NCBI RefSeq assembly: GCF_050320075.1
Contig: NZ_CP190018.1
Source: Escherichia coli
GTDB taxonomy: Bacteria; Pseudomonadota; Gammaproteobacteria; Enterobacterales; Enterobacteriaceae
Length of the DNA: 64,000 nt
Direction: 5' to 3' (one strand)
Positions 1 to 3,000 of this stretch are shown one piece after another. The position numbers are program-made. Positions within the stretch are counted from its first letter, which is position 1. Every line of letters begins with the position of its first letter.

Positions 1-3000
1 TGGAAACCGTGCAGGTGCTGGTCAAAGACTATGATTTCAGTATCAGCGATGCCCTGCGCCCGCTCACCAGTAGCGTAGCCGGTTTCCTTAACCTGACCGG
101 GAAAGGCGAAATTCTGCCAGGCAATGACGCAGACTTAGTGGTCATGACGCCTGAATTGCGCATTGAGCAGGTATACGCTCGCGGCAAACTGATGGTCAAA
201 GACGGCAAAGCCTGCGTGAAAGGAACGTTTGAAACGGCATAAACGGTTGTCAGCCGCCCGAATGGACGTAGAATGCCCGCAAGGGCGGCTGACAGAGTAT
301 AACGTAATGGATGACTGTGGTGCGGTTTTGCATAACATTGAAACCAAATGGCTTTATGATTTTCTGACCCTGGAAAAATGTCGCAATTTTTCCCAGGCGG
401 CAGTCAGTCGCAACGTCTCGCAACCAGCATTCAGCCGCCGCATCCGTGCGCTGGAACAGGCGATTGGTGTTGAATTGTTTAACCGCCAGGTAACGCCGCT
501 GCAACTCTCAGAACAAGGGAAAATCTTCCATTCGCAGATCCGCCATCTGTTGCAACAGTTAGAGAGCAATCTGGCAGAGCTGCGTGGCGGCAGCGATTAC
601 GCGCAACGTAAAATCAAGATAGCCGCTGCACACTCTCTTTCCCTCGGTCTGTTACCGTCCATTATCAGCCAGATGCCGCCGCTCTTTACCTGGGCAATTG
701 AAGCCATTGATGTCGATGAAGCGGTCGATAAACTGCGCGAAGGGCAAAGTGACTGTATTTTTTCCTTTCACGACGAAGATTTGCTGGAAGCGCCGTTTGA
801 CCACATCCGCTTATTTGAATCTCAATTGTTCCCCGTCTGCGCCAGTGACGAACACGGAGAAGCACTTTTTAACCTCGCTCAGCCACACTTTCCGTTACTG
901 AATTACAGCCGCAACTCCTACATGGGGCGATTGATTAATCGCACTCTGACGCGCCACAGTGAGTTGAGTTTCAGCACCTTTTTTGTCTCTTCGATGAGCG
1001 AGCTTTTAAAGCAGGTTGCCCTCGACGGATGTGGAATTGCCTGGTTGCCGGAGTATGCCATCCAACAAGAAATTCGCAGCGGGCAGCTCGTTGTACTGAA
1101 TCGGGACGAACTGGTGATCCCGATTCAGGCCTATGCATACCGGATGAATACCCGCATGAATCCAGTTGCCGAACGCTTCTGGCGTGAACTGCGCGAGCTG
1201 GAGATTGAACCTGGCTGAAAGTTTTCTGCAGAAAATCTTCCGGCGCTGGGAATTATGATTGAGGTTCCTGCCGCAGTCATGATTGCAGAAAAATTAGCCA
1301 GTGAAGTCGATTTCTTTTCCATCGGCACCAACGATCTGACGCAATATATTATGGCGGCAGACAGAGGAAATAGCACCGTCGCGAAACTGGTCGATTATTG
1401 TAATGACGCGGTGATTAACGCTATTGCTATGGTGTGTCAGGCCGGACGTAATAATGAAATTCCGGTCAGTATGTGCGGCGAAATGGCTGGAGATATCCAG
1501 CAAACAGCACGACTGCTCACCATGGGGATTGATAAGCTCAGTGCCAGTCCATCCCGGCTTCCGGCCTTGAAAGCAGCAATCAGAACCTCCCACTAATTGT
1601 GACCTAACGCGATACGTCTTGCGCGTATCGCGTTTCCCGTCATTTACTGCGGCATCGTGCGATGCCAGCTGCCCTTCTGCCAGACCAGGTCAAACGTTAG
1701 CGGCTCATCATCGTGGTACAGCATCATCTCCAGACTAATGGCCAACTCGTAGCAATAGGCTTCTTTCAGATTGACCTGCAATGCCGCAATACGTGGCTCA
1801 TGAAATAAAAGCGCGGAACGTAACTGGCGGCAATACCAACTCTGGAGAAGCTTGTCGCTCTGATTATGCCCTTGCCACTCAGGCATGCCTGAAACAAGTA
1901 ATATTGGTAGCGGTGAATGGGGAGAACTAAAAAGTTGAAAGAGATCCCGGCATACGGAATCACGCAGCGATAACGTATTGTTTCCTGTACTTTCAGGTAA
2001 TACCGTCTGAACTGATTGGCGCATCATTTTGCGCACTCCTGACGTTTAGTGGCATCTGTATCCTGCCCTGGCTGCCGGACACCACTGGGTTGATGCTCAT
2101 ATTCCATAATCATTCCTTTATGCTCATTGCGTCCCTGGCACTTTCATAAGGGATTTATAAGATCCGCCAAAGATAAAACACTGTACAGAAAAGAATATCC
2201 ACTGACTTTTAATTTAAAAAGGTATCATTTGACAAAAGTCATTAAACATAACGGAAATACGTTAACATATTCTGATTATTCCGAATAATTTCTCAGCGTT
2301 AAACTGATATATAATTATTCCAAAACAATATATCGTACGTAATGATTAAATTACGCATAATATATTCTGCAGAACATAATTAACTATTCAGGGAACATAC
2401 ATAGTGCAAAGCGGTTAAACTTTGCACCAGAAATGAGGGATCAGGCGTCGACTTTATCCAGCGGCCATGAATCAAACAGATAGCCATCGAAATAGATGTC
2501 ATCAACATTAGAGAACTCCAGCAAGCGCTGCTTCACATTCTCCAGATGCTGCCACATTGCCAGCTTCGCCGCTCGGGCATCTTTTTTGATTAACGCGGCG
2601 AGGATCTGTTTGTGATCGCCCAACCACTCTTTGCGATACAGGCTGTCATCCAGATGGCTGTGCAACTGGATCCACATTGGATTGTTTTCCCGCCACTGCC
2701 AGGACTGACGGAATAACTCCACCAGCATGCTGTTATGCGTTGCTTCGGCAATGGCGAGATGGAACTGCATGTCACCGCTTTCGCTGCTGCCCGGCGCGCT
2801 GGAAGCCAGTTCACGCTCTTCCAGTTGCAATGCCTGGCGCATTTTGACGATATCTTCGCGGGTAGCCTGCAGGGCGGCAAACTCGGCGATGTTACTTTCC
2901 AGTAACTGCCGCGCCTGTAACAGCTCAAAAGGACCGGCATCGTTGCAGACGTTGGCATCCGGACTGTCTGCGTTGTGGCTGCCTGAGCTATCAAGAACAT

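Follow-up and report, generated by a model that had tools for sequence, protein, structure and literature searches.

The hypT–uxuR interval of the Escherichia coli sequence analyzed here (a window of 64,000 nucleotides from contig NZ_CP190018.1) very probably represents the published GimA remnant form of the hypT–iraD locus, located on an old alternative haplotype of the iraD–uxuR region. Positions 1–3300 of the window are 100% identical to the sequence of E. coli YZLc1-3 (NZ_CP123240.1). The initial annotation of this DNA had described a 113-amino-acid in-frame remnant of the C-terminus of a PEP-utilizing enzyme between hypT and iraD, and about 400 bp of AT-rich DNA without an ORF between iraD and uxuR, at the place where K-12 was said to carry yjiC. 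These descriptions were confirmed, including the presence of yjiC in the K-12 map, and the comparison with K-12 MG1655 showed that its gene content and spacing in this interval are not the same. No inversion or transposition was found between hypT and uxuR, where the differences consist of a deletion and an alternative haplotype.

The hypT gene (yjiE; 307–1218, plus strand), which encodes a LysR-type regulator, has 97.5% overall identity to its K-12 counterpart. It is followed by the GimA remnant (1225–1596, plus strand), a pseudogene derived from the 3′ end of ptsP (also named pptE or ptnI), the first gene of GimA. Within the remnant, a 342-bp ORF from ATG to stop (1255–1596, plus strand) corresponds to the C-terminal end of ptsP, and differs by one substitution from ptsP of the full-GimA strain SCU-484. 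The 113-amino-acid product matched the Pfam family PEP-utilizers_C (PF02896) with an E value of 3.4e-40, but only over profile positions 180–290 of 293. The ptsP protein of SCU-484 consists of 793 amino acids and contains EIIA-man, HPr, EI-N, mobile, and full C domains, while the EI N-terminal domain (PF05524) and the phosphohistidine mobile domain (PF00391), both found in that protein, were not detected by Pfam in the 113-amino-acid product. The gap between hypT and iraD in the window is 425 bp long, and no other GimA gene (ibeA, ibeR, gcl, dhaK, etc.) is present at the locus.

The fragment in the window is the already known GimA remnant of Homeier et al. (2010; PLoS One 5:e10877; PMC2878320). 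That study described a 342-bp remnant of pptE between yjiD and yjiE in CFT073, 536, F11, B2 strains, and ST117, in which the ATG corresponds to an internal methionine codon and the stop codon is the native one. The published primers for the pptE probe match the window exactly, with 0 mismatches, at 1255–1274 and 1576–1596, and further primers from the same study match at 1882–1901 and 1156–1175.

The leftover 113-amino-acid ORF is probably a dead gene fragment, as it retains only the final third of the PEP-binding barrel and no phosphotransfer domain. An alternative, which we regard as very improbable, is that it is a functional small gene under selection, for example one encoding a PEP-binding fragment that modulates PTS/DhaM-type signaling in uropathogens. 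Such a role could be suggested by the presence of an ATG and a stop codon in an ORF that is uninterrupted both in the window and in the examined E. coli carriers, by a GGGA sequence 4 nt before the ATG, and by the location of the ORF 36 nt downstream from hypT on the same strand, which could allow co-transcription. Additionally, a statistical association of the remnant with UPEC was reported, and the idea of a change of function was raised (Homeier et al. 2010; PMC2878320). However, the intactness of the ORF in close E. coli genomes carries little weight, because there has been little time for divergence, and the copy in E1V33 contains a +1 frameshift and a TAG stop, which is the pattern expected for a neutral relic. 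The product is also missing every catalytic or phosphotransfer domain, and the PGAP annotation of YZLc1-3 classifies 1225–1596 as a pseudogene (putative PEP-binding protein, missing N-terminus).

For a dead fragment, the sole plausible residual role would be a passive one, because the remnant and the adjacent hairpin keep apart two convergent genes, hypT and iraD, that overlap by 8 bp in K-12 MG1655, where the PEP-enzyme fragment is absent. This hairpin (1606–1634), which has a perfect 11-bp stem, originates from the ptsP/iraD intergenic region and lies between the convergent remnant and iraD. Its calculated folding energy was −22.4 kcal/mol, with a z-score of −5.4, and none of 200 shuffled sequences was equally stable. 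The hairpin is kept in SCU-484, E1V33, and E. albertii, and it is probably a transcription terminator or insulator, although it was missed by a simple terminator scan because of its weak T-tail.

Full-GimA strains have a block of about 20 kb between hypT and iraD, with genes for metabolism and invasion that include nhaC/ibeT, ibeA, dhaR/ibeR, gcl, hyi, the genes for glycerate kinase and transporters, gldA, dhaK, dhaL, and ptsP. In SCU-484 the end of ptsP is the same as the end of the remnant, and the iraD, spacer, and uxuR that come next are also shared with the window, with 99.2% identity over 1223–3300. A three-way alignment that included this strain defined the deletion junction at 1226–1230 (plus strand), at which the microhomology CTGCA connects the GimA left border to an internal site of ptsP. 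The left copy of CTGCA is located 7 nt downstream from the hypT stop codon, and the right copy is located within ptsP, with about 124 codons, counting the stop, between it and the 3′ end of the gene. Because these copies are at positions 128–132 and 20004–20008 of the full-GimA reference locus, 19,876 bp are missing, and only the last 371 nt of ptsP and the downstream hairpin are left. The deletion probably arose once, by illegitimate recombination or replication slippage at CTGCA, and later spread by descent and homologous recombination; the single origin is proposed on the basis of junction identity rather than a phylogeny.

The last 11 nt of hypT (1208–1218) belong to a different allele, which encodes a C-terminus ending in EIEPG versus EIVLS in K-12. 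This 3′ allele, GAACCTGGCTGA, is common to the window, E. whittamii, and Escherichia sp. E1V33, while K-12 and the E. coli GimA+ strains examined have the hypT 3′ end GTGCTTAGCTGA. Over these 11 nt and the 7 nt before CTGCA, 7 positions distinguish the window from the E. coli GimA+ strains that were compared; hence, the remnant does not derive from the present-day E. coli GimA+ border as sequenced here. Judging from this alignment, the progenitor of the remnant must have had a whittamii-like hypT end. No GimA+ genome with such an end was found (the E. albertii contig compared ends in dhaL), and a GimA left border reading ...GCTGAAAGTTTTCTGCA... would mark the progenitor type. A reading in which the deletion itself left the seven substitutions at the end of hypT as a mutational scar was rejected, because the allele is shared by E1V33 and by E. 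whittamii, which has neither GimA nor the remnant. A seemingly odd hypT end in H140 was the plain left border of a GimA+ strain.

The fact that the adjacent hypT 3′ end is not the allele of the E. coli GimA+ strains examined could also be seen as a trace of an independent insertion of a foreign ptsI-like piece into a lineage that never had GimA. This explanation is hardly credible, because from position 1226 onward the window is collinear with, and >99% identical to, the GimA+ ptsP 3′ end, hairpin, iraD, spacer, and uxuR, and an insertion would not rebuild this exact context. Moreover, the 7 nt between the hypT stop codon and CTGCA resemble the left border of GimA, with 4 of 7 identical.

On the other side of iraD, the gap to uxuR is 413 bp long (2028–2440), has 35.6% G+C (31.3% in its distal 150 bp), and contains no long ORF, with only the 27-codon idlP present. 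Its distal part (2291–2440, minus strand), which includes the terminator-like hairpin of uxuR (2402–2429), gave no blastn match to K-12, and is 95–96% identical to E1V33, E. whittamii, and SCPM-O-B-8794. The K-12 segment at this position is about 1.38 kb long and carries yjiC, the promoter P1, ytiC, and the 5′ portion of ytiD; the K-12 gene order between uxuR and iraD is yjiC, ytiC, ytiD, idlP. The K-12 DNA from the uxuR stop codon to ytiD (5351–6730 of the K-12 locus) had no blastn match in the window, and a tblastn search of the 64-kb window with K-12 YjiC (DUF2686, YjfZ/YjiC family) returned nothing significant, with a best E value of 1.3. The uxuR gene (2441–3214, minus strand) forms the right boundary of the variable cassette; it is 95.3–95.5% identical to K-12 up to the stop codon, directly after which the K-12 homology stops. 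No paper describing the yjiC-less haplotype was found in literature searches on yjiC, phylogroup B2, iraD, and uxuR.

The iraD gene itself (yjiD; 1644–2027, minus strand), which encodes the 127-amino-acid RssB anti-adaptor (Pfam GPW_gp25), is a divergent allele, called here window-type. It has 80.5% nucleotide and 78%–82% amino acid identity to K-12, with a different C-terminus, while its identity is 99.7% to GimA+ SCU-484, 96.6% to E1V33, and 94.0% to E. whittamii. The 27-amino-acid idlP (ORF27; 2024–2107, minus strand), which serves as the iraD leader peptide in K-12 (Park et al. 2017), aligns codon for codon with its K-12 counterpart, and the overlap of its stop codon with the iraD start in the sequence ATGA is kept, which suggests translational coupling as in K-12. 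The adjacent proximal leader and promoter region (2108–2290, minus strand; about −81 to −263 from the iraD ATG) is homologous to K-12. Candidate GGA motifs at 2103–2105, 2114–2116, 2132–2134, and 2163–2165 all align with the K-12 CsrA sites BS4 to BS1, with the motif at BS1 shifted by ∼3 nt relative to K-12. The P2 region is alignable but not identical in sequence, as the K-12 TATACT, presumably the −10 hexamer of P2, is TATCTT in the window. The K-12 iraD promoters were mapped by Merrikh et al. (2009, as cited in Park et al. 2017), and the K-12 constructs spanned −254 to −133 for P2, −138 to +20 for the leader, and −547 to −413 for the P1 fragment (Park et al. 2017). P1, ytiC (ORF23), and the 5′ part of ytiD (ORF47) have no counterpart in the window, where the K-12 homology ends at about −263 and the uxuR stop codon is located at −414 from iraD, at the place where the K-12 P1 fragment would sit. 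In strains with this cassette iraD is presumably expressed from the proximal region only, or else the AT-rich spacer contains an unmapped promoter for it.

A census covering 5426 complete E. coli genomes gave 265 with the same hypT/ptsP deletion junction, at 98.3% identity or more, and about 246 with full ptsP or full GimA. The yjiC-less spacer was present in 491 genomes (identity of at least 99% in 490 of these), including CFT073, 536, IHE3034, and E2348/69, while yjiC was present in 4896. We take CFT073, 536, and E2348/69 to belong to phylogroup B2. The carriers of the junction and the spacer came from humans, poultry, dogs, water, and wildlife. Hence, the proposal of a strain-specific rearrangement in the initial annotation stood in so far as the DNA flanking iraD on either side is unlike that of K-12 and the change extends to the iraD regulatory region, but neither the junction nor the spacer is strain-specific. 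Likewise, one rearrangement does not account for both anomalies, which correspond to the ∼19.9-kb GimA deletion and to an older yjiC-less cassette that is also present in full-GimA strains. Despite the differences from K-12 on both sides of iraD, a recent rearrangement private to this strain has next to no probability and is already refuted by the census, by the same arrangement in E1V33, and by the publication of the remnant in 2010.

A chimeric query of K-12 yjiC and window iraD identified 22 genomes with both, 20 of which were SMS-3-5-like mosaics, and this explained the gap between counts of 511 and 491 genomes. A third, E69-like iraD/spacer haplotype behind this gap was rejected, as a search of E. 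coli with the E69 sequence gave no match above 90% identity. Strain 2A was of the ordinary window type. A complete linkage of the presence of GimA or its remnant with the lack of yjiC was dropped; the lack of yjiC is linked only to the window-type iraD and leader.

In the window, the cassette begins with the final 11 nt of hypT and ends at the stop codon of uxuR; it consists of the divergent iraD, the conserved proximal leader (idlP, four GGA motifs, and the P2 region), and the short distal spacer leading to the uxuR terminator. It is 94%–97% identical to E. whittamii and Escherichia sp. E1V33, with 89%–91% identity in the flanking hypT and uxuR, and the iraD of E. albertii is closer to the window type (85%) than the K-12-type iraD is (80%). 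The yjiC-less cassette is also found in full-GimA strains and in other Escherichia species, and the absence of yjiC is an older feature, separate from the GimA deletion. It is possible, though on balance doubtful, that the DNA between the hypT and uxuR stop codons is a cassette whose polymorphism is ancient and extends across species boundaries. GimA and yjiC occur together in E. albertii, where GimA is at the same site, and in SMS-3-5-like E. coli, where it is next to yjiC, and E1V33, which is another Escherichia species, has the same junction and arrangement as the window. These observations argue that GimA is older than phylogroup B2. They argue likewise that the three published patterns combine two or more independent polymorphisms that recombination has shuffled, and do not form a simple reductive series.

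Because the finding confirms a published locus polymorphism that is used in ExPEC typing, it carries little weight by itself. Beyond the description by Homeier et al. (2010), the present data provide the exact CTGCA junction with the 19,876 bp lost, the decaying remnant in the non-coli Escherichia E1V33, and the linkage of the remnant with a spacer lacking yjiC and with a divergent allele of iraD; the genealogy of the cassette is a modest addition to the known locus. K-12 is a poor model of iraD regulation for the 491 of 5426 genomes with the cassette, since compared to K-12 these strains are without the distal promoter region, without two of the leader ORFs, and without yjiC, the neighbor co-induced by stress, and their IraD is ∼20% diverged. 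Should there be a functional difference between the cassettes, IraD-dependent stabilization of RpoS upon DNA damage or starvation would be controlled through a different promoter architecture, and without the co-induced yjiC, in ∼9% of E. coli, most of them B2 extraintestinal pathogens.

Compared to PTS Enzyme I and DhaM-type phosphotransferases, the 113-amino-acid product contains a genuine piece of the C-terminal PEP-binding domain, but the EIIA-Man-like, HPr-like, EI N-terminal, and phosphohistidine mobile domains are missing from it, as is the first 60% of the barrel, and as a member of this group it is predicted to be nonfunctional. The complete GimA locus was reportedly described by Huang et al. 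in 2001, and is said to be present in strains RS218, UTI89, APEC O1, and IHE3034. Its right flank (ptsP 3′ end, hairpin, iraD allele, 413-bp yjiC-less spacer, and uxuR) is identical to that of the window, while of the 14–15 GimA genes the window retains only the final 371 nt of ptsP, and its hypT 3′-terminal allele is different. With the K-12 iraD region the window shares the 27-codon idlP overlapping the iraD start, an identical Shine–Dalgarno region, and an alignable P2 region, and its GGA motifs align with BS1–BS4, but it differs by the lack of P1, ytiC, the 5′ half of ytiD, and the divergently transcribed, co-induced neighbor yjiC, and by an iraD coding sequence that is ∼20% diverged. The closest likeness is to the GimA remnant pattern (Homeier et al. 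2010), with which the window shares the site, the 342-bp ORF, the primer matches, the internal ATG, and the native stop codon, and from which the remnant itself shows zero differences.

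Window positions 1-3300 are E. coli DNA, identical at 100% over this range to the chicken isolate E. coli YZLc1-3. The 3′ end of iadA (to 242) is followed by hypT (307-1218, plus strand), a 113-aa ORF (1255-1596, plus strand), iraD (1644-2027, minus strand), 413 bp of AT-rich DNA, uxuR (2441-3214, minus strand) and uxuB (3429-4889, minus strand). In K-12 MG1655, hypT and iraD are convergent with an 8-bp overlap, and the uxuR-iraD interval contains yjiC, ytiC, ytiD and idlP. Comparison by blastn showed 97.5% identity to K-12 for window 1-1218, 95.5% for 2441-3300 and 77.6% for 1664-2290, and no K-12 match for 1219-1663 or 2291-2440. 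No YjiC homologue was found across the 64-kb window. The ORF matched the Pfam profile PEP-utilizers_C (E=3.4e-40), covering only profile positions 180-290 of 293. These data bear out the initial annotation, which had described a PtsI-like remnant between hypT and iraD and the absence of yjiC between iraD and uxuR, and had expected K-12 to differ in gene content.

In the PGAP annotation of YZLc1-3, region 1225-1596 is a pseudogene, "putative PEP-binding protein, missing N-terminus", and a full-length 793-aa ptsP occupies the same position in some E. coli genomes. In one of these, SCU-484, the ~20-kb block between hypT and iraD is the GimA locus (ibeA region), with nhaC, ibeA, dhaR, gcl, hyi, genes for 2-hydroxy-3-oxopropionate reductase, glycerate kinase, transporters and glycerol dehydrogenase, and dhaK, dhaL and ptsP. 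Three patterns have been described at this site: complete GimA, no GimA, or a "342 bp remnant" of pptE (synonymous with ptnI and with the ptsP named here), which starts at an internal ATG, retains the native stop and is carried by CFT073, 536, F11, many B2 strains and ST117 (Homeier et al. 2010, PMC2878320). The pptE probe primers of that study match window 1255-1274 and 1576-1596 with 0 mismatches, and its yjiD-yjiE screening primers match 1882-1901 and 1156-1175; the window fragment is thus the published GimA remnant.

The deletion junction was located by aligning the window to both GimA ends of SCU-484. The left border of GimA reads ...GCTGACATTATT CTGCA AAACATGG, the ptsP interior reads ...GGGACTTA CTGCA GAAAATCTTCC, and the window junction reads ...GCTGAAAGTTTT CTGCA GAAAATCTTCC, which places a 5-bp microhomology at 1226-1230. 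Compared with SCU-484, 19,876 bp are missing, leaving the last 371 nt of ptsP and a downstream hairpin (1606-1634; -22.4 kcal/mol, z = -5.4). Of 5426 complete genomes, 265 contained the whole of a 121-nt probe spanning the junction at ≥98.3% identity, while ~246 others matched it on the ptsP side only, meaning that they have full GimA. That one junction is common to the carriers argues for a single deletion event. The full protein consists of EIIA-Man-like, HPr-like, EI N-terminal, phosphohistidine and PEP-binding domains, and the remnant retains the last third of the PEP-binding domain alone. The remnant also occurs, with an identical junction, in the non-coli Escherichia sp. E1V33, where it is interrupted by a +1 frameshift and by a TAG stop, the pattern expected under neutral decay. 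The remnant thus appears to be a relic and no gene; its only plausible effect, together with the hairpin, would be passive, spacing hypT and iraD by 425 bp in place of the K-12 overlap.

The absence of yjiC is a feature distinct from the remnant, and an older one. The full-GimA strain SCU-484 has no yjiC either, and its 413-bp spacer is that of the window. Among the 5426 complete genomes, the yjiC-less spacer was present in 491 (490 at ≥99% identity), including CFT073, 536, IHE3034 and E2348/69, K-12-type yjiC in 4896, GimA or the remnant in 511, and yjiC together with the GimA-side iraD end in 22. In SMS-3-5 the order is uxuR-yjiC-ytiC/D-like-idlP-iraD-ptsP-dhaL-dhaK; here yjiC, the leader and iraD to ~nt 350 are K-12-type (96-100% identity), and the final ~35 nt of iraD are window-type, as are the hairpin and ptsP. 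Hence, at least four combinations occur in E. coli: yjiC without GimA, as in K-12 (~4874 genomes), the remnant without yjiC (265), GimA without yjiC (~226), and both, as in SMS-3-5 (~20). The absence of yjiC goes with the window-type iraD and leader, and not with GimA itself. In E. coli EC69 (cerebrospinal fluid) and an ST2350 genome, a chimeric query (K-12 yjiC plus window iraD) matched only to position 1195; these genomes seem to have yjiC and a window-like iraD body without the window-type 3′ end, and would, if the combination is real, be further recombinants at this locus.

A scan for IraD, with one genome per species, found six loci. Identity of hypT to the window was 97.5% in K-12, 91.3% in E1V33 and 88.9% in E. 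whittamii, and that of uxuR 95.3, 89.4 and 90.1%, respectively (87.1% in E. albertii). For iraD the values were 80.5% in K-12, 96.6% in E1V33, 94.0% in E. whittamii and 84.9% in E. albertii, for the spacer 62.6, 96.3 and 94.9% in the first three, and for the junction and remnant 96.5% in E1V33. E1V33 lacks yjiC; E. whittamii lacks GimA, remnant and yjiC, and carries the window allele at the 3′ end of hypT. By these identities, the cassette between the hypT and uxuR 3′ ends has a genealogy unlike that of its flanks, and E. coli segregates two deeply diverged cassettes, of which the window type is also present in cryptic-clade Escherichia. On the left side of the junction, the window was 95.6-96.1% identical to GimA+ E. 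coli, no closer than to K-12 (97.5%), and right of it GimA+ strains were >99% identical; hypT of a GimA+ strain was 95.6% identical. Nissle 1917, ATCC 25922 and CFT073 are close relatives, of which the first two have the K-12-type cassette and CFT073 the window type, so the cassette was probably swapped by recombination inside B2. Diversity is unusually high across the whole neighbourhood, and the zone around hsd/mcr is known for high recombination; this diversity and the restriction-modification genes within ~50 kb are consistent with such a zone. In E. albertii, a YjiC homologue (62% aa identity) and iraD are followed by a complete ptsP (90% aa identity), then dhaL. That GimA occupies this site there too, with a divergence of species level, supports the view of an ancestral GimA that was repeatedly lost, and extends this view past phylogroup B2, where its origin was put (Homeier et al. 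2010, PMC2878320).

Among GTDB species representatives, two that bear the name E. coli, SCPM-O-B-8794 (~10405-10729) and E69 (~10393-10468), have a 390-aa iadA-sized ORF almost directly after iraD, and no intact hypT-sized ORF is listed in either locus, where hypT may be deleted or disrupted. In E69, iraD and the spacer also belong to a third type that is more divergent (~76-85% identity to the window) and was not seen among the 5426 complete E. coli genomes. A K-12-like IraD, 82% identical to the window protein, is encoded on NZ_ABFU01000118.1 (605 bp); this contig of the Bacillus coahuilensis m4-4 assembly almost certainly stems from contaminating E. coli DNA.

In K-12, numbered from the iraD ATG, the P1 fragment spans -547 to -413, the P2 fragment -254 to -133 and the leader -138 to +20; ORF23 (ytiC), ORF47 (ytiD) and ORF27 (idlP) are translated, and CsrA, with four sites in the region, represses iraD only via idlP, whose translation is coupled to that of iraD (Park et al. 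2017, PMC5574718). In the window, idlP (2024-2107, 27 aa) is intact and still overlaps iraD in an ATGA, the SD region matches that of K-12 exactly, and GGA motifs, as putative CsrA sites, align to all four K-12 sites. The K-12 TATACT, the inferred P2 -10 hexamer, aligns to TATCTT, a predicted promoter element. Because K-12 homology stops at ~-263, with the stop codon of uxuR at -414, P1, ytiC and the 5′ half of ytiD have no window counterpart in the alignment to K-12. The distal 150 bp of the spacer (31% G+C) include the uxuR terminator hairpin (2402-2429). AZT induces K-12 yjiC, ytiD, idlP and iraD 11- to 33-fold, independently of LexA (PMC11228462), so part of a co-induced unit is missing from window-type strains. 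A 53-aa ORF (2127-2288, plus strand), antisense to the leader across the conserved P2/CsrA-site region, is probably spurious.

Elsewhere in the window, decayed genes lie downstream of nanC-nanM (~20264-23005; pseudogenes in the annotation of an identical record): a truncated sialate O-acetylesterase, a frameshifted fragment of a phosphorothioated-DNA-binding restriction endonuclease, and yjhR helicase with an internal stop. An ISCro1 (IS66-like, IS66-family) element (39463-42078) directly adjoins a minus-strand cluster absent from K-12 (42318-45374; mtnK, mtnA and a class II aldolase gene, for 5-methylthioribose kinase, isomerase and a fuculose-phosphate-aldolase-like protein), which resembles the DHAP-shunt salvage cluster described in ExPEC. 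A defence cluster (47532-55571) begins with McrB- and McrC-family proteins and includes an Alw26I/Eco31I/Esp3I-family type IIS restriction endonuclease and cytosine-5 and adenine methyltransferases; a CP4-like prophage remnant follows to ~63800, with a cbtA/yeeU toxin-antitoxin, an antirestriction protein and a JAB-domain protein.

In the literature searched, no paper was found that gives the precise junction, reports the remnant from another species, shows that the yjiC and GimA polymorphisms are independent, notes that the cassette differs from its flanks in genealogy, or describes the missing P1/ytiC/ytiD region; these points are modest, purely comparative additions. The core finding, a GimA remnant beside iraD, is already known. 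The reading in the initial annotation is only partly right: the neighbourhood is altered, but not by a strain-specific rearrangement, as the locus is a published deletion relic on a common, old haplotype.
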